A program made the position numbers and the translations under genes. From the NCBI GenBank assembly GCA_963715195.1, contig CAVQRT010000031.1, positions 262,918-326,917 on the forward strand: a stretch of DNA of 64,000 nucleotides, read 5' to 3'. The notes under the pieces were generated by a model. That model did not search any database. It was given only the letters and a program-made list of their open reading frames with translations, and was not told where the DNA came from. The stretch is from Thermodesulfovibrionales bacterium (lineage in GTDB: Bacteria > Nitrospirota > Thermodesulfovibrionia > Thermodesulfovibrionales > SM23-35). This document shows, one piece after another, positions 7,784-27,020 of this stretch. How positions within the stretch are numbered: the stretch's first letter is position 1; the number at the start of each line of letters is the position of its first letter.

Positions 7784-8773
7784 ATGTGTAGCTTTATGAA
7801 TAAAACCATGATTGCAATTCTGAAAATTCTGGAGCAGCATGAGGATACCATCCTTGGCTCAAGAGGGATTTCAAGACAATTGAAACAACATGGGATTGAA
7901 CTTACGGAGAGAACTGTGCGTTATCACCTGAGAATTCTCGATGAGCGGGGGTTTACCAAAGTATTTGGCAAGGAAGGAAGGATGATAACACAGAAAGGAA
8001 AAGTCGAGCTTTCGCATGCGTTAGTGTCTGACAGAATCGGTTTTGTTATCAGCAGGATCGAAAGTCTTTCGTATCTGACAAGCCTTGATCTCGAAAAAAA
8101 CGAAGGCGATATCATTCTCAATGTATCGTATTTTCCCGAAAAAAATCTGAAGGAAGCATTGCGGATAATGAGGCCGGTCTTTCTGTCGCCGTATGTTATG
8201 TCTGACAGGGTTATCATGAAAAGGGGAGGAGAGAAGATCGGAGATGTCCCGGTCCCGGATGAACAGGTTGGTTTTGGCACCGTCTGCAGTGTAACCATCA
8301 ACGGTATATTCCTCAAGTCAGGTATCCCTGTTATATCGAAGTTCGGTGGTGTCTTGCAGATAGAGGAAGCTGAACTGTCGAGATTTACTGCACTGATCAG
8401 TTACGAAGGTTCATCATTGGACCCGCTCGAAATATTTATCAAGAGCAGGATGACGGATGTCTTGGGTGCAGTTAGAAATCGCTCCGGGAAGATTCTCGCC
8501 AGTTTCAGAGAAATACCGGTGGTAAGCATCGAAAAAGCGGAAGAACTCTGGAACGAATTGAGAAAAAATGGCATACGGGGTATTTTGCTCATAGGCAATC
8601 CCAACCAGCCACTTCTCGAGATGCCTGTTGGACTTGACAGGGCAGGGATGGTGATCGTTGGCGGACTGAATCCAATTGCTGCACTTGAAGAAGCAGGGAT
8701 TGCGACGGTAACAAAAGCAATGTCCACCCTCCACAGGTTCTCTGACCTTGTGAAGTTTACGGAACTTCTCTAA
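7784..8773 (+). CDS. nrpR: NrpR-type transcriptional regulator (winged HTH plus one DUF128/NrpR domain)
   Basis: 329 aa. N-terminal TERTVRYHLRILDERGFT HTH block and C-terminal NrpR-domain blocks (GTVCSVTINGI, YEGSSLDPLE, ASFREIPV, GGLNPIAALEEAGI). Alternative starts lie at 7796 and 7808. Confidence 0.75.
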   Translation: MCSFMNKTMIAILKILEQHEDTILGSRGISRQLKQHGIELTERTVRYHLRILDERGFTKVFGKEGRMITQKGKVELSHALVSDRIGFVISRIESLSYLTSLDLEKNEGDIILNVSYFPEKNLKEALRIMRPVFLSPYVMSDRVIMKRGGEKIGDVPVPDEQVGFGTVCSVTINGIFLKSGIPVISKFGGVLQIEEAELSRFTALISYEGSSLDPLEIFIKSRMTDVLGAVRNRSGKILASFREIPVVSIEKAEELWNELRKNGIRGILLIGNPNQPLLEMPVGLDRAGMVIVGGLNPIAALEEAGIATVTKAMSTLHRFSDLVKFTELL

Positions 8774-12593: not shown

Positions 12594-13484
12594 CTATGCC
12601 CCATAAAATTTAGACGGGCCTTGCAGAACGTGCCATTCAGCTTCTTCAAAGACTTTTATGCACTCCTTGACTGTCATCCCCCGTTTGCCTTCTGTCTCTT
12701 TCTCGGTGTCGCGGGGGTTGGCCCCGGCTTCCGCCCACAGGAGGTTGGCCCCTGCAGCGGCACCAATGACATTCGGCTCGTGAGTGCAGTTGCCTGGTAC
12801 GTCATACCCCAGCGCCAATCTCACTACCGCAAGAATGTGTGCCATCTTTGCCTCGCTGACGATACCATATTGAGCCATATTGGTTCCGGGTATCGGGATT
12901 CGCCGTGCTGCCCCACTATACACCGGTTTGGCGTCACGGGTAATTATTGTCTTTTCTACTAATTCTTCAATAGAATGTTCATTACCAACCGGCTCGACAC
13001 AAGTACCCAATGATAGTCCGGCTTCTCTCGCATTTTTAAAAGTCATGAGTCTTTTATTGACAGGAATTGTTGTATCTCGACCTTCACCTAATCTCACAGC
13101 ATGGTATATTCCCACAAAACCGGTATCTTTCAGCTTTTTTGCCTGTTCTCTGGTAAAATCTCCGATGTTTGCAACAAGGACAGTTTCCGGGCGGAGGGAT
13201 TTCCTGATTTCCCGGGAGATGTTGACGAATTTTTCGAACGAATAATCAGCCGTACTCATGATATAAACGGCATTCGCTCCGTCAGCTTCGAGCTGTTTTG
13301 CTTTTGCAACAGCTTCCTCCGCTGAAATTTCAACCCTTTCAGTAAAAACTTTGTTTTTGGCCGCAAACGAACAAAATGAACAGTTCCTAGGGCACGGAGC
13401 AATATTTAAACCCACTTGCGCATGAACTTCCGCCAGGCCATTGCCTGCATGCTCACTCTTTCTTCGAGAAGCTGCGAGCATCAT
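12594..13484 (-). CDS. Radical SAM protein, BioB/HydE-like
   Basis: CPRNCSFC (Cx3Cx2C) cluster motif and overall BioB-like layout. The reading frame stays open upstream to 13624 without any ATG (see findings). Confidence 0.7.
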   Translation of the reverse strand: MMLAASRRKSEHAGNGLAEVHAQVGLNIAPCPRNCSFCSFAAKNKVFTERVEISAEEAVAKAKQLEADGANAVYIMSTADYSFEKFVNISREIRKSLRPETVLVANIGDFTREQAKKLKDTGFVGIYHAVRLGEGRDTTIPVNKRLMTFKNAREAGLSLGTCVEPVGNEHSIEELVEKTIITRDAKPVYSGAARRIPIPGTNMAQYGIVSEAKMAHILAVVRLALGYDVPGNCTHEPNVIGAAAGANLLWAEAGANPRDTEKETEGKRGMTVKECIKVFEEAEWHVLQGPSKFYGA

Positions 13485-13714: not shown

Positions 13715-13733
13715 GATATTGACAATCATTATC
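13715..13733. promoter_or_regulatory. Fur box
   Basis: GATATTGACAATCATTATC matches the classical 19-bp consensus GATAATGATAATCATTATC at 17 of 19 positions. It lies immediately downstream of the -10 element and upstream of a Fur-family gene. Confidence 0.65.
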
Positions 13734-13752: not shown

Positions 13753-14226
13753 ATGCCGTGGAGAGATGGATCCGGACCCCCATGGTTGCAGGGGAAATTA
13801 AAGGGTTGTGGTTACAGGCTGACAGTACCGAGAGAAGCCATTCTGGATGTTTTGAGTAACACAAATGAACATCTGTCTGCTGAAGATATTTATCTAAAGG
13901 TACACAAGGTGCATCCTGCAATCGGATTGACGACTGTGTACCGAACTTTAGAACTGCTGGTGCAAACGGGGATGGTGTTCAAATTCGACTTTGGCGATGG
14001 CAGAGCCAGATATGAATTATCTGAAAGTCCAAAGGGTATTGGGCACCATCACCATCTCGTGTGCACCAAATGCCGCAGGATCGTTGATTATCAGGATTTT
14101 ATTGATGAAGAAAAAGAGCTCTTGAAAAAGACCGAACGGGGGCTTTCTAAGAAATATAATTTTCAGATTACGAACCATCTCATCCAGTTTTACGGGTTAT
14201 GTTCGCGCTGTCTGAAGAGCGGTTAA
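13753..14226 (+). CDS. fur: Fur-family transcriptional regulator
   Basis: 157 aa with a DNA-binding helix region (LSAEDIY..V......IGLTTVYRTLELL), HHHHLVCTKC and CSRC metal sites. Confidence 0.9.
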   Translation: MPWRDGSGPPWLQGKLKGCGYRLTVPREAILDVLSNTNEHLSAEDIYLKVHKVHPAIGLTTVYRTLELLVQTGMVFKFDFGDGRARYELSESPKGIGHHHHLVCTKCRRIVDYQDFIDEEKELLKKTERGLSKKYNFQITNHLIQFYGLCSRCLKSG

Positions 14227-14244
14227 AAAAATTTGTCATATAAT

Positions 14245-14263
14245 GAAAATGATTATCATTGGC
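14245..14263. promoter_or_regulatory. Second Fur-box-like site with a perfect AATGAT-T-ATCATT core
   Basis: GAAAATGATTATCATTGGC matches the Fur consensus at 15 of 19 positions. It lies upstream of the M50/DUF5320/NifX-like gene string. Confidence 0.55.
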
Positions 14264-14355
14264 ACCAATGGACACGAGACTTTTTGATGACCTGTATAGG
14301 AATTTTCTGATCGATGTTTCGATCAGAATCATAAGGAAGCAGATTTTTCAATACC

Positions 14356-15120
14356 ATGAAAACATTACAATTTAGAAATTGCAAAGTATGCATAAACCCT
14401 TTCTGCTCAATTATTGCGGTGATGATCATTTTCTCTTGCGTGAAAGTCATGACACCTATTGACGGTTACCGTTTGCACGCTTTTGACTATCTGATTATTT
14501 CCTTTCTGATTCTCGTTGGTTCGATGGGTTGTCTCTTCTTACACGAGTATGCACATGTTCTGGCATCGAGGAGGATAGGCTTACCGGTTAAGGAAATTAC
14601 GGTGTCATTGTTTGGAGCTTACACGTCACTTCATGGTAGCCCTTTGCAACCACGAGAGGCACTCGTTGTATCTATAGCCGGGCCTGTCGCAAATGTCTTT
14701 ATAGGAATCATTTTCTATGCAGGTTACCTTGTTTTCCTGCAATCAGATATTGTCGGTACTATATTCTTTTACCTGAGCGTTTTCAATGGTGTTCTGAGTG
14801 CTTACAATTTAATGCCAGTTATGCCTTTAGATGGAGGATTGATTGTGCGTTCCACATTGTGGTTGGTGAGCGGTAACTGGACATGGGCAACGCGAAGAGC
14901 ACTCCTCATTGGCAATGGATATGCTGTACTTTGCATTATCGCAGGAATCATGCTTGTCACCATGCAGCATAGTCTCATCGGTGCCGTTTTATGCGTTCTG
15001 GGGTTATCTCTTTGGCAAAGTGAAAAATTAGCATATCAACGAATGTTGGCAGCAAAAATATTGAACATAGTAAACCCTAAGGGCTATCGAAAGGAGGTGA
15101 TGAGAGATGCCATTCGGTGA
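14356..15120 (+). CDS. Site-2 protease family (M50) membrane zinc metalloprotease
   Basis: HEYAHV (HExxH) in a TM helix, NLMPVMPLDGG, and multiple hydrophobic segments. The start is uncertain, with alternative ATGs up to 14449. Confidence 0.75.
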   Translation: MKTLQFRNCKVCINPFCSIIAVMIIFSCVKVMTPIDGYRLHAFDYLIISFLILVGSMGCLFLHEYAHVLASRRIGLPVKEITVSLFGAYTSLHGSPLQPREALVVSIAGPVANVFIGIIFYAGYLVFLQSDIVGTIFFYLSVFNGVLSAYNLMPVMPLDGGLIVRSTLWLVSGNWTWATRRALLIGNGYAVLCIIAGIMLVTMQHSLIGAVLCVLGLSLWQSEKLAYQRMLAAKILNIVNPKGYRKEVMRDAIR

Positions 15121-15478
15121 CGGAACAGGACCTCAGGGCTTCGGGCCAAGGACAGGAAGAGGGTCAGGATATTGCGCTGGCTTTGGAATGCCTGGTTCCA
15201 TGAATTCTGTGCCTGGAGGAGCGGGCTTTGGCTTCGGCCGCGGCAGGGCAATGGGCTGCCAGTGGTTTGGAGGTGGTCGCGGATGGCGGAACTGGTATCG
15301 TGCAACTGGATTACCCCACTGGGCACGAGCAGGGTATGGATATCCTTATGCACCATCATGTACCGCCAAAGAGGAAACAAACTTTCTTAGGGAAGAGGCA
15401 GAATTTCTGAGAAAGCAGCTCGAAGACATTCAAAACCGGATCAGTACTTTAGAAAAGGCAGAAACGCAGGAAAGCTGA
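15107..15478 (+). CDS. DUF5320 family protein
   Basis: MPFGDGTGPQGFGPRTGRGSGYCAGFGMPG..., a Gly/Arg-rich middle and a C-terminal coiled coil (EEAEFLRKQLEDIQNRISTLEK). SD AAGGAGG. Confidence 0.8.
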   Translation: MPFGDGTGPQGFGPRTGRGSGYCAGFGMPGSMNSVPGGAGFGFGRGRAMGCQWFGGGRGWRNWYRATGLPHWARAGYGYPYAPSCTAKEETNFLREEAEFLRKQLEDIQNRISTLEKAETQES

Positions 15479-15610
15479 TATGTCCAATATCAGGTTGCCA
15501 TTGCGATCTCGCTCCCCCCTTCCTGTATCAAGAGCAGATGTTTTGAGTATTCTGCCTTGAGAGTGGATCGCAATGGCTTTTTTAAGAAAAGATAAGGGAG
15601 GTAACATCAC

Positions 15611-16015
15611 GTGAGAGTTGCAATATCTACAGACGGTGAATTTGTATCGGAACATTTCGGAAGATGTCCGTCTTTTACGGTAGTCGATATTGAAGAGGGC
15701 ATAGTCAGGAGTACCATGGCCTTGGAAAATCCCGGACATCAGCCAGGGGTTATCCCCCAATTTTTACATCAGAAGGGAGTCAACTGTATTGTGGCAGGCG
15801 GCATGGGAATGCGTGCAAGAGGTTTTTTTGATGAGGTCGGTATGCAAGCGATTCTGGGTATTACAGGAAGGATCGACGATGTAATCCGGAAACTTCAGAA
15901 CGGAATACTGCAGGGAGGTGAGAGTCTCTGCAAGCCAGGTGCAGGAAAAGGATATGGTCTTGACAAGGAAGTGTGTGACCATCCAGATGAAGCGCATAAA
16001 AAGTGTAAACACTAA
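15611..16015 (+). CDS. NifB/NifX-family (dinitrogenase FeMo-cofactor-binding fold) protein
   Basis: MRVAISTDG..VSEHFGRCPSFTVVD...VNCIVAGGMG. GTG start with SD GGGAGG. Confidence 0.85.
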   Translation: MRVAISTDGEFVSEHFGRCPSFTVVDIEEGIVRSTMALENPGHQPGVIPQFLHQKGVNCIVAGGMGMRARGFFDEVGMQAILGITGRIDDVIRKLQNGILQGGESLCKPGAGKGYGLDKEVCDHPDEAHKKCKH

Positions 16016-16030
16016 AGAGAGGTGATAGAC

Positions 16031-16399
16031 ATGAAAATTTGTATAACGTCACAGGAAGACAATCTCGATGCACAGGTCGATCCCCGCTTTGGCAGATGCC
16101 GATATTTTGTTATTGCTGATCCGGAAACCCTTCAGTATGAGGCGATTGTGAATCCTAATATTGATGCGAGGGGTGGTGCAGGCATACAATCAGGGCAGAT
16201 TATGGCCGAAAAGCAGGTCAAAGCAGTTGTCACGGGAAATGTAGGTCCGAATGCTTTTCAGACGCTCAATGCAGCCGGAATTACGGTAGTAACAGGTGCG
16301 TCGGGCACTGTCAGGCACGCGATAGAAAAATACAAGAACGGGGAATTAGAAACAGCCCAGGGACCAACAACCGGCGCCATGATGGCGCACGGGAAATAG
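16031..16399 (+). CDS. NifB/NifX-family protein (second copy)
   Basis: MKICITSQ...VDPRFGRCRYFVI...GAGIQSGQ...VKAVVTGNVGPNAF..L.AAGI. Confidence 0.85.
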   Translation: MKICITSQEDNLDAQVDPRFGRCRYFVIADPETLQYEAIVNPNIDARGGAGIQSGQIMAEKQVKAVVTGNVGPNAFQTLNAAGITVVTGASGTVRHAIEKYKNGELETAQGPTTGAMMAHGK

Positions 16400-16412
16400 G
16401 GAGGTGATTGGA

Positions 16413-16628
16413 ATGCCAAGAGGACAGGGTCAAGGTTCTGGTTCGGGCGGCGGGATGGGAAGAGGTGCTGGCAGCGCTGGTAGAAGAGGAATGGGAGGTA
16501 AAAAAGCTGGAGGCCCGGGAGGTAATTGCATCTGCCCCAATTGTGGAGAAAAAGTTGTCCATCAGCAGGGTGTCCCCTGTTACTCAGTCAACTGCTCCAA
16601 ATGCGGTGCAAAAATGGTGAGGGAATAG
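16413..16628 (+). CDS. Small Gly/Arg-rich zinc-ribbon protein
   Basis: MPRGQGQGSGSGGGMGRG... followed by CPNCG...CSKCG. SD GGGAGG. It lies in the same operon string. Confidence 0.55.
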   Translation: MPRGQGQGSGSGGGMGRGAGSAGRRGMGGKKAGGPGGNCICPNCGEKVVHQQGVPCYSVNCSKCGAKMVRE

Positions 16629-16667
16629 AGGTGTTAGAAATGCAATCTCCTTGGAGAGAGGTGGAAT

Positions 16668-17567
16668 ATGCGTAAGGAACAGGAATGTAAAACGAATGAA
16701 AGCAGTTCAAAGCGGAATCTCCCGACAAGGGAGGAGATTGAAGAGATGCGGGAAAAGCTTGCGCTGCAGGATAATATCGGGCGTATCAGCCACAAAGTTG
16801 TTGTACTGTCAGGTAAAGGGGGTGTCGGCAAGAGTACGGTTGCTACCAATATAGCAGTCGCCCTGTCTGTAAAGGGACAGAAGGTCGGACTGATGGATGT
16901 TGATATCCATGGTCCGAGTATTCCTAAAATGCTGGGACTTGAAGGAAACGTACTGAGAGGAACAGAAACAGGGCTTACGCCGATAGTTTATAGTGATAAT
17001 TTACGGGTGATGTCAATCGGGTTTATCCTGAGGAGTCAGAACGATGCAGTTATTTGGAGGGCACCACTGAAACACAAGCTCATAAGAGATTTTCTTACCG
17101 ATGTGAAATGGGGTGAGATTGATTATCTTATTATTGACTCTCCTCCAGGAACCGGAGACGAACCTCTTTCTGTTGCTCAGTTGATTGAAGATGCAGACGG
17201 AGCTGTCATTGTGACAACCCCTCAGGATGTAGCCCTTATAGATGTACGCAAGGCTATAACGTTTTGTCGTCAGGTAAACCTTCCGGTTTTGGGGGTTGTT
17301 GAGAATATGAGTGGCTTTGTTTGCCCTCATTGTGGTAAGACGGTGAATATATTTAAAACTGGTGGTGGTGAATCAATGGCATCAGATATGGGCGTGCCTT
17401 TTCTCGGACGTATACCACTGGAACCGAAGATTGTCGATGCAGGCGACAGCGGAAAACCGTATTTTGAGTACTACCGGGAGTCGGAAACCGCAAAGGCTTT
17501 CAATAGGGTAATAGAAACCCTGCTCTTGTTGAACTCTCAAAGGAAAACTGCTTCTTCAGGAGAGTGA
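16668..17567 (+). CDS. Mrp/NBP35 (ApbC) family Fe-S cluster carrier ATPase
   Basis: Deviant Walker A VLSGKGGVGKSTVATN, the CPHCG cluster-bridging motif and GRIPLEP. Confidence 0.9.
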   Translation: MRKEQECKTNESSSKRNLPTREEIEEMREKLALQDNIGRISHKVVVLSGKGGVGKSTVATNIAVALSVKGQKVGLMDVDIHGPSIPKMLGLEGNVLRGTETGLTPIVYSDNLRVMSIGFILRSQNDAVIWRAPLKHKLIRDFLTDVKWGEIDYLIIDSPPGTGDEPLSVAQLIEDADGAVIVTTPQDVALIDVRKAITFCRQVNLPVLGVVENMSGFVCPHCGKTVNIFKTGGGESMASDMGVPFLGRIPLEPKIVDAGDSGKPYFEYYRESETAKAFNRVIETLLLLNSQRKTASSGE

Positions 17568-17571
17568 ATCC

Positions 17572-17814
17572 ATGCCTGTTTATGAATATAAATGTGAAAC
17601 ATGCGAATATGTATTTGAAGTGAACCATGCAATGAACGAAAATCCGGCTGTGTTCTGTCCGGAGTGCAATGCAAACGCCATGAAGATTATTACCGGAGGA
17701 ACGGGGTTTATTATGAAAGGCTCTCATCATAAGGGTACCGGCATCCAGTGCGGAAGGGAACAGACATGCTGCGGAAAAAGCACCCCGTGTGAAACACGAC
17801 CGTGTGACAAATAA
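17572..17814 (+). CDS. FmdB-family zinc-ribbon protein
   Basis: MPVYEYKCETCEYVFE......CPEC is the typical CxxC...CxxC FmdB N-terminus. Confidence 0.8.
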   Translation: MPVYEYKCETCEYVFEVNHAMNENPAVFCPECNANAMKIITGGTGFIMKGSHHKGTGIQCGREQTCCGKSTPCETRPCDK

Positions 17815-17838
17815 GATGACAAGAGGAGGAATAATCCA

Positions 17839-18708
17839 TTGATCATATCGATTGCAAGCGGGAAAGGCGGCACCGGAAAGACCACTGTTGCGGTGAATCT
17901 TGCCTTATCGCTTCAGAATGTCCAGTTTCTGGACTGTGACGTGGAAGAACCGAATGCGCATCTTTTTCTGAAGCCAAAAATGCACTCGAAGAAAATTGCT
18001 ACTATCCCGGTACCCCAGGTTGATGAAACGCGATGTGATTTCTGTGGGAAATGCAGTGAGGTGTGCGCTTACAATGCGATTGCTGTTTTTCCGGGCAACG
18101 AAAACAGAATCGGGAGCGGTGTTCTGATTTTTCCCCATCTCTGCCATGGTTGCGGAGGCTGTACGCTCCTGTGTCCGCGTGGTGCCATCCATGAAGTGGA
18201 CAAGGAAATAGGCGTGATTGAAAAAGGCACATGCGGGGCTATGCATTTTGTTCACGGCAAATTACATATCGGGGAAATTATGTCACCGCCTTTAATCAGA
18301 CAGGTGAAGCTTTCTATTGACCGGTCACGCACAGTCATCATTGATGCTCCTCCTGGGACTTCCTGTCCTGTTATCGGCTCGGTAAAAGGGAGCGATTTCT
18401 GCATCCTCGTCACCGAGCCGACTCCTTTTGGATTGCATGACCTCATTCTGGCGGTTGAAGTGCTTGAGAAAATGGAGATTCCCTTCGGGGTTGTGATAAA
18501 CCGCTCTGATATCGGGGATAGCGGGGTGGACAATTTTTGCCGGGGCAGGAATATTCCTATCCTTATGCAGATTCCTTTCGACAAGGAGATTGCATTTCTC
18601 TATTCGAACGGCATCCCATTCGTCACGGAAAAGGAAGAGTACATTCAGAAATTTGAGAATATGTTTGAAGCTATTGAAGCAGGCATCAGCGGGAAGGCTG
18701 CACGATGA
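17839..18708 (+). CDS. MinD/ParA-superfamily P-loop ATPase with an inserted 2x[4Fe-4S] ferredoxin domain
   Basis: IASGKGGTGKTT, CDFCGKCSEVC and CHGCGGCTLLCP. TTG start with SD GAGGAGG. Confidence 0.85.
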   Translation: MIISIASGKGGTGKTTVAVNLALSLQNVQFLDCDVEEPNAHLFLKPKMHSKKIATIPVPQVDETRCDFCGKCSEVCAYNAIAVFPGNENRIGSGVLIFPHLCHGCGGCTLLCPRGAIHEVDKEIGVIEKGTCGAMHFVHGKLHIGEIMSPPLIRQVKLSIDRSRTVIIDAPPGTSCPVIGSVKGSDFCILVTEPTPFGLHDLILAVEVLEKMEIPFGVVINRSDIGDSGVDNFCRGRNIPILMQIPFDKEIAFLYSNGIPFVTEKEEYIQKFENMFEAIEAGISGKAAR

Positions 18709-18812
18709 ACGTTATCGACAGAATGCGCTTGCTTGATATTAAACCATATGTGCCGGATTTTGAACCGAGACAAGAAGTCGGAACCGGCTGGCTTGAGGGG
18801 ACATTACCATGA
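18705..18812 (+). CDS. 35-codon micro-ORF resembling the C-terminal TrmO/TsaA motif
   Basis: MNVIDRMRLLDIKPYVPDFEPRQEVGTGWLEGTLP. ATGA overlaps both flanking genes. Compare NRTPILDIKPL in the TrmO-like ORF at 26613..27020. Confidence 0.4.
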   Translation: MNVIDRMRLLDIKPYVPDFEPRQEVGTGWLEGTLP

Positions 18813-19657
18813 AACAGATAGTTGTTATAAGCGGAAAGGGAGGTACAGGGAAAACCGTCTTAACCGCATCTTTTGCCTCACTGGCCGGTAACAAAGTCAT
18901 GGTCGACTGTGATGTGGATGCGGCAGATTTGCATCTTTTGTTGAAGCCGGACATAAAGGAACGGCATGAGTTCAGAAGTGGTGTAACCGCCAGGATAGAC
19001 AGAGACATTTGTCAGGAATGCGGTGAATGTATTTCAGCCTGCCGATTCGAGGCAATAAGTGAAGATTTCAGGGTAGATCCAGTCTCATGTGAGGGATGTA
19101 CTGTCTGCAGCCATGTTTGTCCCGCAGGTGCGGTCATAATGGAAGAAAATATTTCAGGAGAGTGGTACATTTCAGAGACAAAATACGGTGCTCTTGTGCA
19201 TGCGAAATTGGGCATCGCCGAAGAAAACTCGGGCAAGCTCGTTGCGAAGGTGCGTCAAATTGCAAAAGATATAGCCGAGAAAACAGAGAGAGATTACGTG
19301 ATAATTGACGGCCCCCCCGGCATCGGCTGTCCTGTCATTGCAGCAATCACCGGTGTTGACCTCGCACTCATTGTAACAGAGCCAACCCTGTCAGGCATGC
19401 ATGACATGGAAAGGGTGGCACAGGTGTCGAAACATTTCGGGATTCCAACGAAAGTGGTTATCAATAAATACGACTTGAATCTGAAAAACAGCGAAACTAT
19501 CAGAAAGATGTGTGACCAGGCAGATATGGAAGTGGCAGCACTTCTGCCGTTTTCCCGGCAGGTTAGTGAATCAATCGTTCAGGGAATTCCTCTCGTCGAA
19601 TTCAGCAAGAACGGAATATCCGGGGACATCGCTCTGCTCTGGGAGAGGATCAGATAA
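18809..19657 (+). CDS. MinD/ParA-superfamily P-loop ATPase with an inserted ferredoxin domain (second copy)
   Basis: ISGKGGTGKT, CQECGECISAC and CEGCTVCSHVCP. Confidence 0.85.
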   Translation: MKQIVVISGKGGTGKTVLTASFASLAGNKVMVDCDVDAADLHLLLKPDIKERHEFRSGVTARIDRDICQECGECISACRFEAISEDFRVDPVSCEGCTVCSHVCPAGAVIMEENISGEWYISETKYGALVHAKLGIAEENSGKLVAKVRQIAKDIAEKTERDYVIIDGPPGIGCPVIAAITGVDLALIVTEPTLSGMHDMERVAQVSKHFGIPTKVVINKYDLNLKNSETIRKMCDQADMEVAALLPFSRQVSESIVQGIPLVEFSKNGISGDIALLWERIR

Positions 19658-19660
19658 TTT

Positions 19661-20593
19661 ATGAAACATGTATATGGCCCCGTGCCCTCACGGAGGTTGG
19701 GCTTTTCCCTTGGGATAGATGTAGTTCCTTATAAGACCTGTACGCTTGACTGCATATATTGTCAACTCGGAAGGACAACCCAGAAAATGACAGAGAGAAA
19801 ACACTATTCGGAAAAAGATGCTGTTTGCAGAGAAGTGCAGGAAACCTTGGACAAACAACAGCGTGTCGATTATATAACCTTCTCCGGTTCCGGTGAGCCA
19901 ACCCTGAATGCTGAAATAGGTGCTCTCATCAGAGAGGTAAAAACGATAACGCCGGTGCCGGTGGTCGTTCTTACCAACGGAACCTTGCTTTTTCGGAAAG
20001 ATGTTCAGGAAGATCTTGCAGGTGCTGATATTGTAATGCCTTCTCTTGATGCCGCTTCTCAGAAGGTGTTTGAACGTATCAACAGACCTCACAAGTCTCT
20101 CGATATACAGACAATTATTCATGGGCTCACAGCATTCAGGAAACGGTACACCGGACAGGTATGGCTGGAGATTATGTTTGTGGACGGTTTCAATAATGAT
20201 CACAACGAATTGCTTTTCTTAAAGGAGGCAGCATCAGAAATCGACCCTGATAAAATCTATCTTAATACCGTCGTAAGACCGCCGGCTGAAACATATGCAA
20301 AACCGCTCAACAAGGACGAGATGTTAACGCTAAGAAGTTACCTGGACCAACGCTGTGAAGTTATTGCAGAATTTCATGGGCAAAAAATCGAGGAAACTCA
20401 GAATGTTGATGAAGCAATTATCGAGATGACCAGAAGACGTCCCTTAACCATTACCGATATAGCAAATGTCCTTGGCATCTCGGGGGTGAACGCTGAAAAA
20501 TGGGTAAATGGTCTCGAAGAGTCGGGCAAGCTCAAAGAGCGGCAATATAAGGGAGAAAAATATTACTCGTATACAGTGGAACCGCAGAGATAA
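19661..20593 (+). CDS. Radical SAM protein with a C-terminal winged-helix-like tail
   Basis: VYGPVPSRRLGFSLGID..P.KTCTLDCIYCQLG (Cx3Cx2C). C-terminal LTITDIANVLGIS... Confidence 0.8.
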   Translation: MKHVYGPVPSRRLGFSLGIDVVPYKTCTLDCIYCQLGRTTQKMTERKHYSEKDAVCREVQETLDKQQRVDYITFSGSGEPTLNAEIGALIREVKTITPVPVVVLTNGTLLFRKDVQEDLAGADIVMPSLDAASQKVFERINRPHKSLDIQTIIHGLTAFRKRYTGQVWLEIMFVDGFNNDHNELLFLKEAASEIDPDKIYLNTVVRPPAETYAKPLNKDEMLTLRSYLDQRCEVIAEFHGQKIEETQNVDEAIIEMTRRRPLTITDIANVLGISGVNAEKWVNGLEESGKLKERQYKGEKYYSYTVEPQR

Positions 20594-20917
20594 CTGACAA
20601 GAACCGGGGGATGAAGCTTTCCGAACTTGAGCGTTGGTTTGAAGTTTTCGACTGATCTTTCTCATTTCGGCAGTATTCGGAAAATAGTGTTTTAAAAATC
20701 ATCAACCCGAAAAGCGCAGACATTGTTTTCGCCCCGGCGAATCCGCTGAGGCGGACAAAATTTATTTACCCCGATGATGTTTGCCTCACCGAATCCCCGA
20801 AGTGAAAAATAAAGTCAGCAAAACCAATTATTGAAAAACGACTTTTTCAGCGTCCCGTTAAAAATGTGCTTCTGCAGGACACAGGTTGACAAAGAGTCAT
20901 TGTTTATAATAAAGTAT

Positions 20918-20936
20918 ATTGAGACTCAATCTCAAT
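20918..20936. promoter_or_regulatory. Perfect 6-1-6 palindrome ATTGAG-A-CTCAAT (then CTCAAT again) abutting the start codon of the second Fur paralog
   Basis: Read directly from the sequence. A TTGACA lies at 20886..20891 upstream. Confidence 0.4.
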
Positions 20937-21396
20937 GGAAGAAGAAATATTCAGACAATATCTTGAGAAGAACGGGCAGCGGTTAACGAGGGAGAGGAAT
21001 GCTGTTTTGGAGAAGGCTTTGTCGTGCAGGGGACACTTTGATCCTGAAACCCTTTACGTAGACATGAGGAAGAGGGGCATGAAGGCATCAAGGGCCTCCG
21101 TATACAGAACCCTCAATTTGCTGTGTGAATGCGGACTTGTGGAAAAAGTCAACAAAACAGAACACGGCACCATTTACGAACAGGCACTCGGCCGCCCTCA
21201 TCACGATCATATGGTCTGTATTCATTGCGGAAAAATTATAGAATTTTTTTCTGAAAGCCTCGAAAAACTGCAGGAAGAGATATGCAGTGAACGGGGATTC
21301 AGAGGGAAAAATCATACGCTTGAAATTCGCGGATATTGCAAAGACTGTGAAAGAGGGAAAGACGTTGCGGAAGGAGAGAAAACATATGGGCGGTGA
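20935..21396 (+). CDS. Fur-family transcriptional regulator (second paralog)
   Basis: 153 aa with ASVYRTLNLL, HHDHMVCIHCG and CKDC. Confidence 0.85.
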   Translation: MEEEIFRQYLEKNGQRLTRERNAVLEKALSCRGHFDPETLYVDMRKRGMKASRASVYRTLNLLCECGLVEKVNKTEHGTIYEQALGRPHHDHMVCIHCGKIIEFFSESLEKLQEEICSERGFRGKNHTLEIRGYCKDCERGKDVAEGEKTYGR

Positions 21397-21649
21397 TCTC
21401 ATGCCACTGATCTTGCTGAAGGAAGGCCAAGAAGGGATCGTGCATATGGTCTCTGGAGGATTGGGACTGATTGGCAGGCTTGCTTCTCTGGGGATAACTT
21501 CTGGTATGAGGGTCAAGGTGGTCAGGAATATTGGTGGACCTTTAATAATTACGACGAATGGTACAAGGATTGCCATAGGAAGGGGGCAGGCCCAGAAAAT
21601 ACTTATCCGGCGTTTGGCCGCCGGAATGGTGCAAGCAGAGATTGCATGA
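21386..21649 (+). CDS. feoA: Ferrous iron transport protein A
   Basis: The FeoA SH3-like pattern LKEGQEGIV......G....RLASLGI..G..V.V. SD GGAGAG. Overlaps the end of the fur paralog. Confidence 0.8.
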
Positions 21650-23633
21650 CAGCAGGGAAAGACCTGCTGGTTGCCCTTGCCGGACAGCCAAATGTCGGCA
21701 AATCAACAGTTTTCAATCTGTTGACCGGCCTGTCTCAGCATGTCGGTAACTGGCCGGGCAAGACGGTCGAAAAAAAAGAAGGTTTTTGTTCCACGAATGG
21801 CACAAGGATAAAAATCGTAGACCTTCCCGGCAGCTACAGCCTGACTGCCTATTCTGAAGAAGAGAAGAATAGCGAGAGACTTTATCATTAATGAACGGCC
21901 GGACGCGGTTGTTCTCATGGCTAACGCCTCGGCACTCGAAAGAAGTCTATATCTCCTCGCGGAGTTTCTGCTTTTAAAAGCTCCGGTCATTTTTGCCCTC
22001 AATATGACGGATGTGGCGGAGCAGCAGGGGATCCGGATTGATGTCGGCCTTCTCGAAAAATACCTCGGGGTTCCTGTTATCCCCATGATCGCTTCAAAAA
22101 ACCGGGGTACCAAAGCATTGATCTCCGAGATCCTTCTCCTTACAGAAGGAAAAAAGGAAAACAGGCCTTCTCTGGCCGAAGTTTCTGATGACCATAAAGA
22201 GATCTTTCTTGAGCTGGCCGATATTCTCGAACAATATATTACCCCGCCGTATCTGACAAAATGGACTATTACGAAAATTATGGAGGGTGATCCTGATATA
22301 ACTGAGAAGATGAGCCGAACTGTCCGGCCCGATTCGTGGAACAAGGTTCAGGCCCTCTTGAGGAAACACGAAGATTCACTTCTTGCTGTCGTCAAGGGGC
22401 GATATGACTGGATTGAGGGCGCTGTTCGCGCTTCTCTTTCCGAGTTCAAGAGGGGGCAGATCCTTCTGACGGATCGACTGGATCATGTTCTCACGCGTCC
22501 TGTGTTTGGGATCCCGATTCTTCTGGGTGTTCTTGCCCTTGTTTTTTCGCTAACCTATGGCTTGGGGTTGCCGTTACAACAACTGCTCGAATCCCTCATG
22601 AACTCTCTTGCGGGCTGGGTCGAACCGTTTCTCGGGAAATCATTCTGGCTGAGGGGAATCATCGTCGACGGTTTACTTGGTGGAGCGGGAACAGTTATGA
22701 CATTTCTCCCGGTGCTTTTCTTTTTTTTTGCGGCCATGGCATTTCTCGAAGACGTGGGATATATGGCAAGAGCTGCTTTCGTCATGGACAGATTTATGCA
22801 TGTGATCGGACTTCACGGGAAAAGTTTTCTTCCTTTCTGTTTGGGCTTCGGCTGCAATGTTCCGGCTGTCATGGGTGCGAGAATCCTGGAATCAGGCAGG
22901 ATACGGTTCCTCACAATCTTCCTTACGCCCTTTGTTCCCTGCACTGCTAAGCTGGCTGTCGTCACGCTTATTGCAGCTGCCATATTTGGGAAGACTGCGC
23001 TCATCATGTCGTGGGCGCTCGTCGCCGGAAACATTTTGATCCTCGGTTTTGCGGGCTTCATAGCGAGCAAGTTCCTTTTCAAAAAACAGCACATGCCTTT
23101 TATCATGGAACTTCCTTTTTATCACAAACCGAACCCGAGAACGATAGGAATGGTTGTCTGGAAAAGGATTACAGCCTTTATCAGGAAGGCCGGAACGATT
23201 ATTGTGATATTTTCCGTGCTTCTTTGGTTATTGTCTCATATTCCAGGCGGACATATCGAAGGCAGCATTCTCGGTTTGATAGGGCAGTCGATTGAGCCTG
23301 TCGGGCGGCCCAATAGGGCTTGACTGGAAGATGATCGTCGCGCTCCTGGCGAGTGTCACGGCGAAGGAAAACTCGATAGCAGCACTGGGGGTACTCTATG
23401 GTGTTGGAGAAGAGGGTATTAGGGGAATTCTGCCGACTGTGATGAGTCACGCATCAGCACTCTCTTTCCTCGTGATACTTATGCTGTTTGTACCCTGTGT
23501 TGCCACGCTCGTGGTCATGAAACAGGAGATGGGTGGATGGCGTTGGTTCTTGTCTTCTTTCCTCTTCATGCTTGTTCTGTCTTATGTATCCGGTATGGCT
23601 GTCTATCAGTTTGCTCTCATGGTCGGACTATGA
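21646..23633 (+). pseudogene. feoB: Ferrous iron transporter FeoB, split by two single-base frame disruptions
   Basis: The G-domain ([20 protein letters not shown]) sits in frame [29 protein letters not shown] continues in another frame after about 21860. GPIGLDWKMIVALLASVTAKEN continues in a third frame after about 23305. The three ORFs are 21646..21891, 21917..23323 and 23292..23633. Confidence 0.85.
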
Positions 23634-23718: not shown

Positions 23719-24858
23719 ATGATTACATTCAAACAATTAAGAAGGCAGATTGAAAAGATCGGGAGAAAGAAGAGACCTTTCATCGCCTTGCAGATCGAAC
23801 CTACTTCGAGATGCCAACTCAGATGTGTCATGTGTCCGAGGACTATTTTTTCAAGAGAATGGGATAACGGGGACATGCCTCTCTCTCTCTATGACAAGAT
23901 AAGCACGTCTTTCCATCTTGTTGACAATATTCATCTTCAAGGGTGGGGTGAACCGCTTCTTCATCCCGAAATTTCTCTCATGATTCAGAAAGCAAAAGCA
24001 GTGCCTTGCAGGACAAGTCTCACAACAAACGGGGTCCTTCTTAGCGAGCCCGTATCACATGATTTTATCGAAAAGGGTCTCGATACTATCGTGATCTCTA
24101 TTGCTGGAGCAGTGAGCGAAACGCATGAGGCTATCCGCTGCGGTTCTCACTTCGGGCAGATTATCGATAATGTAAAAGTGCTGGCACATTTGAAATTGAG
24201 TATGAAATCCAAGACCCCCAAAATCGTGCTTTCTTTTCTGATGACAAAGAAAAATATCGAAGAGCTGCCTGAGGCAGTGCTGCTCGCGAAGGATACAGGA
24301 TCGGATGAAATGGTCGCAACAAATGTGGATTACATAGCGGGACAATATCAGGATGATATGAAGATATTTTCCTGTAAAGAAGCAGACAGTGAATACAAGA
24401 AAATCGTAGAAAAAGCCTTGCGGACGGCAAAAAAGGCAAAAATTACTTTTCGTGTTTATCCTCTGGAGATGGAAGAACTTATCATGTGCGAGATGAATCC
24501 GCTGAAAATCGTGTTCTTGTCACACGATGGATGTGTCTCTCCTTGTGTTTATTTGAATCTGTCTAAAAAAGGATGGATTCCGCGGATATTTTGTGGAAAT
24601 TATCAAGGGATACAGAAACAGTGCTTTGGATATGTCGGAGAGGATGACTTTGTCGAGATTTGGGAACGCAAAGAATACAAGAACTTCAGGGAACCCTATG
24701 TTAGGAGAATGGCTTTCAACAAGAGAGCATTCGATGTTATCGCTGACGTGCAATCTTCAAAGGCTGCTATGGATGAACTGGAAAAACTGGAAGCGGTGCT
24801 GAGAGATAATCCCTTGCCAGCGGTATGCAGCACCTGCTATAAGGCTTACAATATTTAA
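23719..24858 (+). CDS. Radical SAM protein with a Cys-rich (SPASM-like) C-terminal region
   Basis: EPTSRCQLRCVMCP (Cx3Cx2C), GWGEPLL, and C-terminal CVSPCVY...C....C..C. Confidence 0.75.
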   Translation: MITFKQLRRQIEKIGRKKRPFIALQIEPTSRCQLRCVMCPRTIFSREWDNGDMPLSLYDKISTSFHLVDNIHLQGWGEPLLHPEISLMIQKAKAVPCRTSLTTNGVLLSEPVSHDFIEKGLDTIVISIAGAVSETHEAIRCGSHFGQIIDNVKVLAHLKLSMKSKTPKIVLSFLMTKKNIEELPEAVLLAKDTGSDEMVATNVDYIAGQYQDDMKIFSCKEADSEYKKIVEKALRTAKKAKITFRVYPLEMEELIMCEMNPLKIVFLSHDGCVSPCVYLNLSKKGWIPRIFCGNYQGIQKQCFGYVGEDDFVEIWERKEYKNFREPYVRRMAFNKRAFDVIADVQSSKAAMDELEKLEAVLRDNPLPAVCSTCYKAYNI

Positions 24859-24952
24859 GATTTTTCGATAATTTTTTAAAAATGTTTTACAATGGACCGT
24901 ACTACTTTTTTAAAGTGATACCGGTAAGTCTTTCTGAAAGGTGAGAAAACAT

Positions 24953-25741
24953 ATGGAACTGGATGAAGTTGTCATAACGAAGGCGATTGTCGATCAATTC
25001 TGCAAAAAGCTGACCAATCATCTTGAAACTGATGTCGCTATTGTAGGGGGTGGACCTTCAGGTCTTGTCGCCGGTTATTTTTTGGCAAAAGCGGGCAGGA
25101 AAACCGTTCTGTTCGAACGCAAGCTGAGTGTGGGTGGCGGTATGTGGGGTGGCGGCATGTTATTCAACGAAATTGTAGTTCAGAAAGCCGCAGTTCGGAT
25201 TCTTAAAGAATTTGGAATAACGTACTGCGAATTTCAGAAAAATTACTATACTGCGGATTCCGTTGAGTCGATTTCCACGCTTATTTCCAGGGCGGTGCAG
25301 GCCGGTGTGACGATCTTTAACTGCATCACTGCCGAAGATGTGCTGATGCGCACGTCACGCGTTACCGGTCTGGTGCTGAATTGGTCGGCAGTCGAAATGG
25401 CACGCCTTCATGTCGACCCACTGGCTGTTCGTTCCCGCTTTGTCGTCGATGCCACGGGCCACGAAACTGCGGTGGTCAGACTGGTTCAGAATAAAGTGCC
25501 CGGGACGCTGAAAACTCTAAGCGGGAAAGTAGAGGGAGAGAAATCGATGTGGTCGGATAAGGCCGAGAGCCTGACGCTCAAAAATACGAGAGAAGTTTTC
25601 CCCGGTTTATATGTGGCCGGCATGGCTGCAAATGCGACATTTGGAGGACCCCGCATGGGGCCGATATTCGGGGGGATGCTCCTTTCAGGCGAAAAAGTTG
25701 CAAAGCTGCTTTTGCAAGCACTTTCACAGAAATCCAAATAA
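24953..25741 (+). CDS. thi4: Thi4-family thiazole synthase
   Basis: [48 protein letters not shown] and [16 protein letters not shown]. The ORF is open from a GTG at 24941. Confidence 0.85.
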
Positions 25742-25767: not shown

Positions 25768-26616
25768 TTATATCTGAAGAACTGTTCCGGTCTGCAGATG
25801 CTGCAACTTTTCTCCAAGCACACTCTTGAGAACAGCATATGCTTTCTGACATGTGCAATGCCCCGTATACATTGACTGAATCGGATAGCGAAGAGTCTCT
25901 TTAGCGATGTTCTGTATATCAGTTTTACTGTCTGCCAGAGAGTTGCGCTTCGGCAGGCATATCAAATGAAAACCCCCTATGACTGCCTTGATAGGCAGTC
26001 CGGGGAATTTCTCTGCGACAGTATCGACCATGTTCAGCACGCCGTTATGGGAGCAGCCTGTAAAGATTACCAGATTACCGTTTTCTCTGACAGCCATGAT
26101 AAGCTCATGGTCAAAATTATCTAAACTCCAGCGGGTGCCTTTCCTGGTATATAAGGATCTGTTCCCTTTTGGTTTCGGGTATGCCGTGCCGATAGTCGGA
26201 AAGATGTATACACCGGTAAGAATTTCGGTAAATTTCTCTATATACCCAAACCTCGCAGCATATGTTTTAAATAAATCCCTGTCCAGTCCTATATATCTCC
26301 TGGGCAACAGCGATGCCTTAAAGTAACACTCTCCGACCGGTGGCCTTTTAAGATAGACCTTTGCGCTCTGGTTCAACGCAAAAAACCGCTGCAATCCACC
26401 GCCATGATCGTAATGGTGGTGGGACAATACAGCTGCGTCAGCAGCGCCCAGGTCAATTCCGAGTTTATCCGCATTCTGAGAAAAAGAATCTGATGCTCCT
26501 GTGTCAAAGAGAATCGCTTTATTATCGAATGATATATGCAATGATAATCCGTGCTCTGCAGACAAACCAGTGTTGTTATCTGCCTGCGTATTTTCGATCA
26601 GGGTGGTAATGATCAT
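25768..26616 (-). CDS. MBL-fold metallo-hydrolase (COG1237-like)
   Basis: AEHGLS..I......ILFDTG and LSHHHYDHGGGL (HxHxDH). Confidence 0.8.
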   Translation of the reverse strand: MIITTLIENTQADNNTGLSAEHGLSLHISFDNKAILFDTGASDSFSQNADKLGIDLGAADAAVLSHHHYDHGGGLQRFFALNQSAKVYLKRPPVGECYFKASLLPRRYIGLDRDLFKTYAARFGYIEKFTEILTGVYIFPTIGTAYPKPKGNRSLYTRKGTRWSLDNFDHELIMAVRENGNLVIFTGCSHNGVLNMVDTVAEKFPGLPIKAVIGGFHLICLPKRNSLADSKTDIQNIAKETLRYPIQSMYTGHCTCQKAYAVLKSVLGEKLQHLQTGTVLQI

Positions 26617-27020
26617 AAATCACACTGTCTTTTTAATCCGGTAAGAGGCTTAATATCCAAGATAGGTGTTCTGTTTACCATATCCAGGCCTTTTACATAA
26701 ACAACATTTTCTTCAATACCAGTGACTCTGAGAACTGACATGCCTATGGGATTAGGCCTTATGGGTGAACAGGTACTGAAAACACCGAGTTGTTCCATTC
26801 GATGCGGAGGTTTCTGGACGAGATGATCTGCGGTAAACTCCCGGCTCTGATGAAAATTGAAAAGAACAAGGATATCCTGCCCTTTCTGAATATCCTTTAA
26901 ACCTTTTTTGTACGCTTCCTCAATGACGATTTTCCCTGGAACATCGGAAAGTGTCCAATGGCGGGGTATTGCGACGGCATCTGTTTGTACAAAACCGATA
27001 GGCTTGAATTCGATGGCCAT
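26613..27020 (-). CDS. TrmO/TsaA-family (YaeB-like) SAM-dependent methyltransferase
   Basis: FKPIGFV, FSTCSPIRPNPIG.SV and TPILDIKP. The ORF is open to 27098. The ATG at 27020 (MAIEF) is preferred. Confidence 0.8.
   Translation of the reverse strand: MAIEFKPIGFVQTDAVAIPRHWTLSDVPGKIVIEEAYKKGLKDIQKGQDILVLFNFHQSREFTADHLVQKPPHRMEQLGVFSTCSPIRPNPIGMSVLRVTGIEENVVYVKGLDMVNRTPILDIKPLTGLKRQCDL

Follow-up and report, generated by a model that had tools for sequence, protein, structure and literature searches.

What do NifX-fold proteins, cluster-binding ATPases and a radical S-adenosylmethionine (SAM) enzyme do together in a stretch of DNA that carries no nitrogenase genes? The question is raised by a 64-kb stretch of contig CAVQRT010000031.1 (assembly GCA_963715195.1), which is called the window here and in whose numbering all positions are given. 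Twelve closely packed open reading frames (ORFs) occupy its + strand from 13753 to 20593, namely fur1, which encodes a Fur-family regulator, and eleven ORFs (14356-20593) described in the original prediction as a metal-cluster-handling string without an established function, apparently under Fur control. With reasonable probability the string is an operon of the orp type from a Thermodesulfovibrionales-like anaerobe, with a Fur-family regulator of its own at its head that represses it. To judge by the nearest named homologs, the organism probably belongs to the Thermodesulfovibrionales (Nitrospirota). Judged by homology and gene order, the core of the string is the orp cluster of Desulfovibrio vulgaris (DVU2103-2109), which encodes the ORange Protein (ORP) complex. 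The ensemble is thus not anonymous, as had been supposed, but has a name and has been partly characterized biochemically, whereas its physiological role was rightly said not to be established.

The ORP complex cluster has been under study in Desulfovibrio since 2011 (PMC6345978, PMC8359166, PMC3897727). Orp3, Orp4 and Orp8 of D. vulgaris are purified together. Two clusters are bound by MrpORP, a bridging [4Fe-4S] cluster and, on its Di-Nase domain, a [3Fe-4S] cluster, and the protein transfers iron-sulfur (Fe-S) clusters to the ORP complex in vitro; both the formation of the complex and this transfer are known for the D. vulgaris proteins only (PMC6345978). The ORP system has been linked to the anaerobic lifestyle and an archaeal origin is considered possible, while the only physiological role given in the literature is 'putatively cell division' (PMC6345978, PMC8359166, PMC3897727, PMC4641369).

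All eleven co-directional ORFs of the string were found at the positions originally assigned to them. The family assignments hold when compared with Pfam and NCBIfam, although two of them, the winged-helix tail of the radical SAM protein and the Gly-rich zinc ribbon, were borne out only with additional support from homologs, an AlphaFold2 (AF2) model and recurrence in other genomes. Catalytic and cluster motifs are intact. Neighboring gene ends overlap or are at most 40 nucleotides (nt) apart, as predicted for the whole string, with the sole exception of a 132-nt spacer between the DUF5320 gene and the first NifX gene, which contains a conserved hairpin. The absence of nitrogenase genes was also confirmed. 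No ORF of 150 amino acids (aa) or more in the 64-kb window, which alone was scanned, gave an above-threshold match to Fer4_NifH or Oxidored_nitro, the NifH- and NifDK-type Pfam families. A nitrogenase linkage of the NifX-fold proteins was rejected for the window on this ground, in agreement with what had been proposed.

The Mrp/NBP35 Fe-S carrier ATPase (16668..17567; ParA/NUBPL, 345 bits) and both NifX-fold proteins, A (15611..16015; Nitro_FeMo-Co, 73 bits) and B (16022..16399; Nitro_FeMo-Co), have the NCBIfam model MrpORP (NF041136) as their top model. The Mrp protein, which contains the motifs GKGGVGKS and CPHC, corresponds to the P-loop half of MrpORP (Orp9). It matches model positions 3-258 with 403 bits, which is below the cut-off of 450 because the Di-Nase domain is a separate gene. 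Both NifX ORFs match the C-terminal Di-Nase part of the model, protein A at positions 265-359 with 86 bits. Protein A carries HFGRC, PGHQPGVIP and CDH, and motifs of the HFGxC/PGHxPGxxP/CDH type have been described for MrpORP's Di-Nase domain (PMC6345978). A single fused MrpORP is absent from the string, its two parts being separate genes, and by these matches Mrp and protein A are a split MrpORP. Fused and unfused Mrp/Di-Nase forms are intermixed in the published tree (PMC6345978).

Protein B, which probably starts at the ATG at 16031, is of the ORP/Orp8 type. Its best match among solved structures is 2WFB, the ORP of D. gigas (E 3.7e-20), followed by MTH1175 (E 4e-19), and its identity to the Desulfovibrio sp. 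X2 ortholog of ORP is 41%. The two MinD-type ATPases (17839..18708, Pfam CbiA, ParA and Fer4; 18809..19657, Pfam) are of the Orp3/Orp4 type. Each contains GKGGTGKT and an insert for 2x[4Fe-4S] with two CxxCxxCxxxC motifs, and the first and second are 42% and 48% identical, respectively, to the corresponding MinD-ferredoxin genes of Desulfovibrio sp. X2. The orp locus of this strain was reached with the D. gigas ORP sequence as query. In it two MinD-ferredoxin genes come after the ORP ortholog, with PAS-sigma54 activators alongside, and the layout is that of the published orp3-orp4-orp5 / orpR / orp7-orp8-orp9 arrangement.

The conservation of the neighborhood was examined by a scan with a MinD-ferredoxin alignment, one genome per species, which resulted in 80 loci. 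Their ORFs were classified by BLASTP against the window proteins and counted if they were on the same strand and no more than 7 kb from the anchor, a procedure that probably under-counts short low-complexity proteins. The bacterial loci belong to Clostridia, Omnitrophota, WOR-3, Chloroflexota, Desulfobacterota, Planctomycetota, Acidobacteriota and others, and the archaeal ones to Methanosarcinales, Methanocellales, Bathyarchaeia, Thermoplasmatota, Asgard archaea and others. The same families occur together in all 80 loci, so that the gene order is far from chance. The string is therefore conserved outside this genome, in strict anaerobes including methanogens, as had been expected. A second MinD-ferredoxin gene is found in 97% of the loci and adjoins the first in 78 of the 80, and an ORP-type NifX gene is found in 86-91%. 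Mrp (47-62%), DUF5320 (39-44%), the Gly-rich ribbon (29-39%, 31/80), FmdB (31-35%), DUF134 (21-24%) and the radical SAM gene, which follows the second MinD gene (20-24%), are less constant. CGGC (6-12%), Fur (6-9%) and TrmO (about 6%) are rarer still, and M50 was counted in one locus of the 80. By these frequencies the core consists of the MinD-ferredoxin pair and the ORP-type NifX protein; Mrp, DUF5320, the Gly-rich ribbon, FmdB, DUF134 and the radical SAM protein are frequent members, and M50 and a TrmO remnant are incidental. Such sorting shows which proteins should be expressed together.

Three close relatives (L084, L086 and L087; 79-86% identity) have the same overall order. The 5' half reads fur, M50 (in L084 only), DUF5320, NifX, NifX and Gly-rich ribbon. 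The middle part contains a protein of 113-139 aa, Mrp and FmdB (both missing in L086), and inserted genes for a PAS kinase and a metallo-β-lactamase fold (MBL) protein. The 3' half is composed of MinD, a TrmO-like gene, the second MinD and the radical SAM gene. The 113-139-aa protein has no Pfam match (...CxxC...NCHLPSGMC...) and follows the Gly-rich ribbon gene in the relatives (L084 6549-6890; L086 9537-9911; L087 7128-7547), preceding Mrp in L084 and L087. It is absent from the window, in which the gap between the Gly-rich ribbon and Mrp is 39 nt. A cation diffusion facilitator (CDF) transporter (Cation_efflux and ZT_dimer) fused to a Nitro_FeMo-Co domain is located after the module in all three (L084 15482-16849; L086 13700-14986; L087 12930-14246), preceded by a small ORF that resembles the zinc-ribbon part of the window's Gly-rich ribbon. 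The CDF-NifX fusion is also absent from the window.

The regulator at the head of the string, fur1 (13753..14226; Pfam FUR, 108 bits, residues 20-147), is preceded by a sigma70-like promoter, P1 (13686..13714, + strand), TTGACA-17-TAAAAT, which agrees with the consensus at 11 of 12 positions. Fur box 1, GATATTGACAATCATTATC (13715..13733), differs from the 19-bp Fur consensus at 2 positions; it directly adjoins the P1 -10 hexamer and lies 19 nt upstream of the fur1 start. Fur box 2 (14239..14263), located 13 nt past the fur1 stop and about 95 nt ahead of the M50 gene, consists of two overlapping 19-mers, TATAATGAAAATGATTATCATTGGC, with 3 mismatches each. A TTGTCA-15-TATCAT sequence that overlaps it is a possible promoter. 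When up to 3 mismatches are allowed, the 64 kb contain only two places that match the Fur consensus, with 4 strand-specific matches in all (0.01 expected by chance), and both flank fur1. Both positions are occupied in L084, L086 and L087 despite diverged flanking DNA; in these relatives the TTGACA of P1 is unchanged and AATGAAAATGATTATCATT has been kept directly after fur. The small ORFs found right after fur in the relatives (MKMIII...) were discarded as the Fur box read as codons.

Orthologs of fur1 (55-74% identity) are located directly upstream of DUF5320-NifX-NifX-...-MinD-MinD in L001, L004, L005 and L054, which are metagenome-assembled genomes from four other phyla (Clostridia, Omnitrophota, WOR-3 and Eubacteriales). 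A metagenome scan seeded by the fur1 alignment gave another set of 80 loci, of which those with at least 1 kb of downstream sequence were counted. Orp-type genes are directly downstream in 20 of the 24 loci with at least 60% identity to fur1 and in 24 of the 29 with 46-60%, or 44/53 for the fur1-type orthologs at 46-85% identity taken together. Below 46% identity they are found in none of nine loci, three of which have the gene beside feoB. DUF5320 is the gene directly after fur1 in most of the fur1-anchored loci. Fur-box-like sites with up to 4 mismatches occur at 2.4 per kb beside fur1-type genes, compared to 0.025 per kb elsewhere in the same loci, a difference of about 100-fold. Because orp-type genes accompany the orthologs across metagenomes and distant phyla, fur1 is regarded as belonging to a Fur subfamily that is dedicated to the cluster and moves along with it. 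The predicted Fur control of the string is thus very probable: the boxes are found solely around fur1, their positions are conserved and the dedicated Fur subfamily is syntenic with the string.

The orp operons of Desulfovibrio require sigma54, IHF and the Fe-S redox sensor OrpR, which is restricted to delta-proteobacteria (PMC6345978, PMC8359166, PMC3897727, PMC4641369). From its position, fur1 holds the place that OrpR has in those bacteria, and DUF134 seems to hold the regulator place in many other loci. A site resembling the sigma54 sequence TGGCAC-N5-TTGCW with at most 2 mismatches was found neither in 14227-14355 nor in 15479-15610, and matches across the window are at chance level (38 compared to 29.8 expected). 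No ORF of the window has a Pfam match to Sigma54_activat, the regulator position being taken by a Fur gene. With no -24/-12 site at the candidate promoters and no enhancer-binding protein in the window, control of the sigma54/OrpR type was rejected. No description of a Fur link to orp-type genes was found in the literature that could be searched, and the dedicated Fur paralog with its N-terminal extension, together with the extended list of parts, appears to be new.

The extension, residues 1-19 of fur1 (13753-13812), is Trp/Gly/Arg-rich and stands ahead of the Pfam FUR domain. It is also present in orthologs L084-L153, of which MPWRDGSGPPWLQGKLKGCGYR and MPGRWGGGPAKWWHGEFRGCGYR are examples, and has a consensus of roughly MPGRWGxGPxxWWHGxFRGCGYR. 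In the closest relatives it starts with MPW+DGTGP, where + is K or R, like the MPxGD[GR]TGP start that is found throughout the DUF5320 family.

The spacer between the DUF5320 gene and the first NifX gene (15479-15610) contains an RNA hairpin of about 81 nt (15497..15577, + strand), which is followed by a U-run and was recognized by folding and by comparison of four genomes. The spacer fold has an energy of -46.2 kcal/mol (z = -4.15). There are 25 consensus pairs, with one compensatory and several G-U changes among the four genomes, and the hairpin is 74-81% identical compared to 61-69% at the third codon positions of the flanking genes. Its outer stem is formed by GCCAUUGCGAUC and GAUCGCAAUGGC, and the inner stem is followed by the U-run. 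The C-rich internal loop, CCCCCUUCC, is invariant except for its first base and is complementary to the downstream GGGAGG Shine-Dalgarno sequence. A search for known RNA elements gave no Rfam match at the gathering threshold and no tRNA. A widespread RNA motif was considered and rejected, as a covariance model built from the four sequences, when run against about 1 Mb of related loci, recovered only those four and L085, which is nearly identical. From these data the hairpin is clade-specific, with thin covariation support, and is possibly an attenuator, a terminator or a stabilizer.

The remaining members of the string differ in how firmly they belong to it. The M50 intramembrane metalloprotease (14356..15120; Pfam Peptidase_M50, 61.9 bits) has the expected motifs, HEYAH (HExxH) and NLMPVMPLDG (NxxPxxxLDG), and was originally counted as a member of the ensemble. 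However, a homolog was met among the examined loci only in L084 and L031, L086 and L087 lack it, and by this distribution it is a lineage-specific insertion outside the conserved set. The 35-aa micro-ORF (18705..18812), which sits between the two MinD genes and was also listed as a gene of the string, matches the last 32 residues of a 144-aa TrmO_N protein found at the same position in L086 (62% over 32 aa, E 5e-10) and is for this reason interpreted as a deletion remnant, the 3' end of a TrmO-like gene, and not as a genuine small gene. A 41-aa ORF is its equivalent in L084, and L087 has none. The FmdB-family zinc ribbon (17572..17814; Zn_ribbon_8, 48 bits; TIGR02605, 58 bits) has a Cys-rich tail. 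The Gly-rich zinc ribbon (16404..16628), which probably starts at the ATG at 16413 (MPRGQ...), was recognized from sub-threshold zinc-ribbon Pfam matches and recurrence. It is composed of a Gly/Arg-rich N-terminal part with an isoelectric point (pI) of 12 and a C-terminal 2xCxxC zinc ribbon.

The DUF5320 protein (15107..15478; Pfam DUF5320, 94 bits) consists of a cationic part, residues 1-85, with 29% Gly, 9% Arg plus Lys, 18% aromatic residues and a pI of 10.2, and an acidic coiled-coil-like tail. The tail of IssA has 21% Gly, 10% cationic and 20% aromatic residues and a pI of 10.7 (PMC5524996). The family comprises 3481 representative clusters, the best 150 of which are nearly all stand-alone proteins. 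A 'Rosetta stone' fusion of DUF5320 to a NifX domain was looked for and not found among these 150, ten of which are longer but lack a second Pfam domain. An IssA-type combination of NifX domain and tail in one polypeptide is likewise absent from the window, where the three NifX-fold ORFs are tail-less, with a pI of 5.6-6.3. Upstream of the ORP gene of Desulfovibrio sp. X2 (L081, 7059-7900) there are two proteins without a Pfam match. One, of 168 aa, has a weakly NifX-like N-terminal part (E 1.5e-4 to NifX-fold protein A) and a Gly/Arg/Cys-rich tail, and the other, of 112 aa, is made mostly of GQG and GRG repeats. They are reminiscent of the DUF5320 protein and the Gly-rich ribbon, and the hypothetical proteins of this orp locus have no significant match to DUF5320 or CGGC.

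The radical SAM protein (19661..20593; Radical_SAM, 64.7 bits) is of the COG0731 type with the motif CTLDCIYC. Its homologs carry Pfam matches to MarR, TrmB or TBPIP, and the AF2 model (mean pLDDT 67.8) has three helices and a β-hairpin in residues 249-304, in agreement with a C-terminal winged helix. Solved structures are matched by sequence only weakly, by MoaA (E 1e-3), and all NCBIfam matches are far below their cut-offs, the best partial one being a tungsten-cofactor oxidoreductase maturase with 52.8 bits. In a fold search the NifB structures 6Y1X, 7JMA and 7BI7 ranked first, tied with pyruvate formate-lyase activating enzyme (PFL-AE), viperin and MoaA at a TM score of about 0.48. As the NCBIfam scores were below cut-off and the fold search did not discriminate, a more specific assignment was dropped.

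The module is best read as one for the carriage of Fe-S or metal-sulfur clusters that is induced by iron limitation. The regulator would repress its own gene through the Fur box abutting the -10 hexamer of the fur1 promoter, and Fur box 2 would guard the entry to the genes from M50 and DUF5320 to the radical SAM enzyme. If the Desulfovibrio results can be carried over by homology, a bridging [4Fe-4S] cluster is built on the CxxC of the Mrp/NBP35 ATPase, which passes clusters to both MinD-type ATPases, each with 2x[4Fe-4S]. The MinD-type pair would form a complex with the ORP-type NifX-fold protein, and protein A, like the [3Fe-4S]-binding Di-Nase domain of MrpORP, would bind a cluster of its own. 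The NifX-fold proteins may carry non-covalently bound anionic metal-sulfur species, which the cationic Gly/Arg/aromatic DUF5320 protein and the Gly-rich zinc ribbon, to judge by their composition, could help to hold, and the MinD-ferredoxin pair may spend ATP on the delivery, reduction or positioning of clusters. By analogy with suf of E. coli, an operon that Fur represses, the whole set would be de-repressed under iron scarcity. Such a response would make the module a carrier and rescue system for Fe-S (metal-sulfur) clusters in anaerobes rather than a nitrogenase accessory.

Several observations weigh against this reading. The score of the Mrp protein lies below the equivalog cut-off, and the orthology to the orp cluster is anchored in the NCBIfam model and in two Desulfovibrio references, strain X2 and the D. 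gigas ORP. The N-terminal extension of fur1 is atypical for Fur, and the hairpin with its U-run could cut the genes that follow it off from the promoters under Fur control. The role given to the cationic proteins is drawn from composition, with no fusion among the best 150 DUF5320 representatives. The published phenotype of D. vulgaris orp mutants was read as a defect of cell division or morphology, not as an Fe-S defect. Isolated ORP holds a Mo/Cu-sulfide cluster, not Fe-S (PMC6345978).

Other explanations have to be weighed with these observations in mind. Following the logic of nitrogenase, the module might mature one specific complex metallocofactor for an enzyme encoded elsewhere, with the radical SAM enzyme providing NifB-like chemistry, the NifX-fold proteins acting as carriers and NifH/CooC-like ATPases inserting or reducing the cofactor. 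The list of parts does parallel NifB, NifX and NifH, and metal insertion is known for MinD-family ATPases such as CooC. The rank of NifB in the fold search and the partial match to a tungsten-cofactor maturase point the same way, as does the heterometallic Mo/Cu-S cluster of ORP (PMC6345978). However, PFL-AE, viperin and MoaA fit the low-confidence model of the radical SAM protein as well as NifB does, the maturase match is far under its 380-bit cut-off, and the radical SAM gene is present in just 20-24% of the loci, with no candidate target enzyme consistently adjacent. Since Fur control would also suit a general iron economy better than the maturation of a single enzyme, this explanation is considered unlikely. 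Storage or buffering of iron-sulfur of the IssA type, in which the NifX-fold proteins nucleate a thioferrate-like polymer and DUF5320 and the Gly-rich ribbon serve as its cationic tail, is rather improbable. It would account for the near-identical composition of DUF5320 residues 1-85 and the IssA tail, and IssA is itself a NifX-fold protein (IPR003731) with a cationic aromatic Gly-rich tail, with MTH1175, the second-best structure match of protein B, in its clade (PMC5524996). The Gly/Arg-rich small proteins of the Desulfovibrio sp. X2 locus, one of them with a weak NifX-like N-terminal part, and the feoAB and CDF-NifX fusion genes found near the module in several genomes would also fit. Yet the likeness is one of composition only, and a NifX-DUF5320 fusion is missing among the best 150 of the 3481 representatives. 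The two ferredoxin-insert ATPases and the Mrp carrier are left unexplained. Furthermore, an operon repressed by Fur would be expressed under iron scarcity, and for an iron store this regulatory sign is the wrong one.

A MinD-like device for positioning or cell division, in which the metal clusters are merely redox sensors, would agree with the description of the ORP complex as putatively division-related (PMC6345978), with the localization of MrpORP to one cell pole and with the MinD-like C-terminal amphipathic helix reported for Orp3 and Orp4 (PMC6345978, PMC4641369). Nevertheless, an iron regulator heads the module of the window, iron transport genes flank it in other genomes, and its most constant partners are cluster carriers (NifX-fold, Mrp) and not division proteins. 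In the window the module has no min, fts or par genes as neighbors, and it is also found in archaea with different division machineries, which leaves this explanation with little probability. The eleven genes could finally be neighbors without a shared function, in independent co-directional transcription units. The 132-nt spacer with its strong hairpin and U-run does set DUF5320 apart from the rest, and M50 and the TrmO remnant testify to gain and loss of genes in the string. Such chance adjacency is contradicted by the recurrence of the same families in the same order in dozens of phyla, and by the otherwise tight spacing of the genes, to an extent that allows it to be excluded.

Cluster carriage under iron limitation, the preferred reading, would have consequences beyond this genome. 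The ORP complex is among the few sets of proteins described as specific to anaerobes; its biochemistry points to Fe-S handling, whereas the published suggestion is cell division. A Fur regulator of its own in many phyla, often near feoAB or CDF-NifX genes, provides a concrete and testable link to iron economy, and Fur1 could be a handle for manipulation in organisms without sigma54/OrpR. A bolder proposal, to which we give a low probability, is that outside delta-proteobacteria the orp module is devoted to the iron-responsive handling of anionic iron-sulfide. The Fur paralog would then sense the carried iron-sulfur species besides or instead of Fe2+, and DUF5320 and the Gly-rich ribbon would be IssA-like tails acting in trans for the tail-less NifX-fold carriers. 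If this were true, anaerobes would possess a widespread pathway of Fe-S trafficking and storage that is independent of ISC and SUF and has its own sensor.

Further genes were noted around the string. A second Fur gene, fur2 (20935-21396, +; Pfam FUR), feoA (~21401-21649, +; Pfam FeoA) and feoB (21646-23633, +; Pfam FeoB_N, Gate and FeoB_C) are present between the string and a companion set, as predicted, but feoB is split by two frameshifts into three ORFs. Shifts of +1 and -1, near 21870 within a run rich in purines and near 23300 in GGGCGGCCC, bring the reading frame back and yield a typical FeoB sequence including IGLDWKMIV. The gene is either a pseudogene or the result of an assembly or sequencing error. 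A 7-5-7 inverted repeat, ATTGAGA CTCAA TCTCAAT (20917-20935), ends at the fur2 start codon. It is contained in about 27 bases that recur without change in front of the L084 ortholog of fur2 (TATATTGAGACTCAATCTCAATGG and the next bases), the DNA further upstream having diverged, and is a candidate operator unlike the classical Fur box. The companion set was confirmed by Pfam and consists of genes for a TrmO-like protein (26613-27098, -), a DUF134 protein (27149-27481), a third NifX-fold protein (27441-27821) and a CGGC protein (27987-28382). Genes of these four types recur within orp-type clusters elsewhere, and no Fur box with 4 mismatches or fewer is present at the set (26613-28382). An NrpR-type regulator with NrpR domains and a winged helix (7784-8773) directly follows a set of NuoE/NuoF-like and molybdopterin formate-dehydrogenase-like genes (2884-7760); NrpR is best known as a nitrogen repressor in methanogens. 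There are two more radical SAM genes, one (12594-13484, -) divergent from fur1 and the other, of the radical SAM/SPASM type (23719-24858, +), between feoB and a Thi4-type thiazole synthase (24941-25741), a homolog of which is also found near the module in L079 and L121.

Comparison with known systems places the string closest to the ORP cluster. With the nitrogenase cofactor proteins NifB, NifX, NafY and NifH it shares the NifX fold, a radical SAM partner and deviant Walker A ATPases with Fe-S clusters. The window differs in the absence of nifHDK and nifEN, by their matches its NifX-fold proteins are of the ORP, MTH1175 and Di-Nase types instead of NifX or NafY, and its radical SAM protein has no NifB family match. 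With IssA of Pyrococcus furiosus the string has in common the NifX-fold domain of the same broad clade as MTH1175, an associated cationic Gly/Arg/aromatic-rich sequence and the iron-sulfur context of an anaerobe. The tail-like sequence, however, is on DUF5320 and the Gly-rich ribbon and not on the NifX-fold proteins, and the window has ATPases, an Mrp carrier, a radical SAM enzyme and predicted Fur repression. The E. coli sufABCDSE operon resembles the string in having a Fur box over the promoter of an Fe-S-handling operon, for which induction under iron limitation is predicted in the window, and Fur autoregulation is a known pattern shared by the window regulator. The proteins are unrelated, as SufBCD, SufS and IscU have no counterpart in the string, and the Fur paralog of the window lies inside the operon, has a W/G/R-rich N-terminal extension and moves with the operon between phyla.

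MrpORP (Orp9) shares with the window proteins the P-loop with the deviant Walker A motif GKGGVGKS, the cluster-bridging CxxC and, on the neighboring NifX-fold ORF, the HFGxC, PGHxPGxxP and CDH motifs. The two domains are separate genes in the window, with two other genes in between, the first Cys of the MrpORP motif CxHFGHCE is replaced by Ser, and the N-terminal non-canonical Cys motif of MrpORP is not evident. The ORP cluster of D. vulgaris Hildenborough as a whole has the same MinD-type pair with 2x[4Fe-4S] inserts, an ORP-type NifX-fold protein, an Mrp/NBP35 carrier with its Di-Nase partner and Gly/Arg-rich small proteins, and is likewise restricted to anaerobes. It is arranged as two divergent operons with a fused MrpORP, which are controlled by sigma54 promoters, IHF and the Fe-S PAS activator OrpR, whereas the window contains a single co-directional string with two genes for MrpORP, a dedicated Fur-family repressor and Fur boxes. 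To the D. vulgaris set the window adds DUF5320, the Gly-rich zinc ribbon, FmdB and the radical SAM-winged helix protein, as well as M50, which is an addition of this lineage alone.

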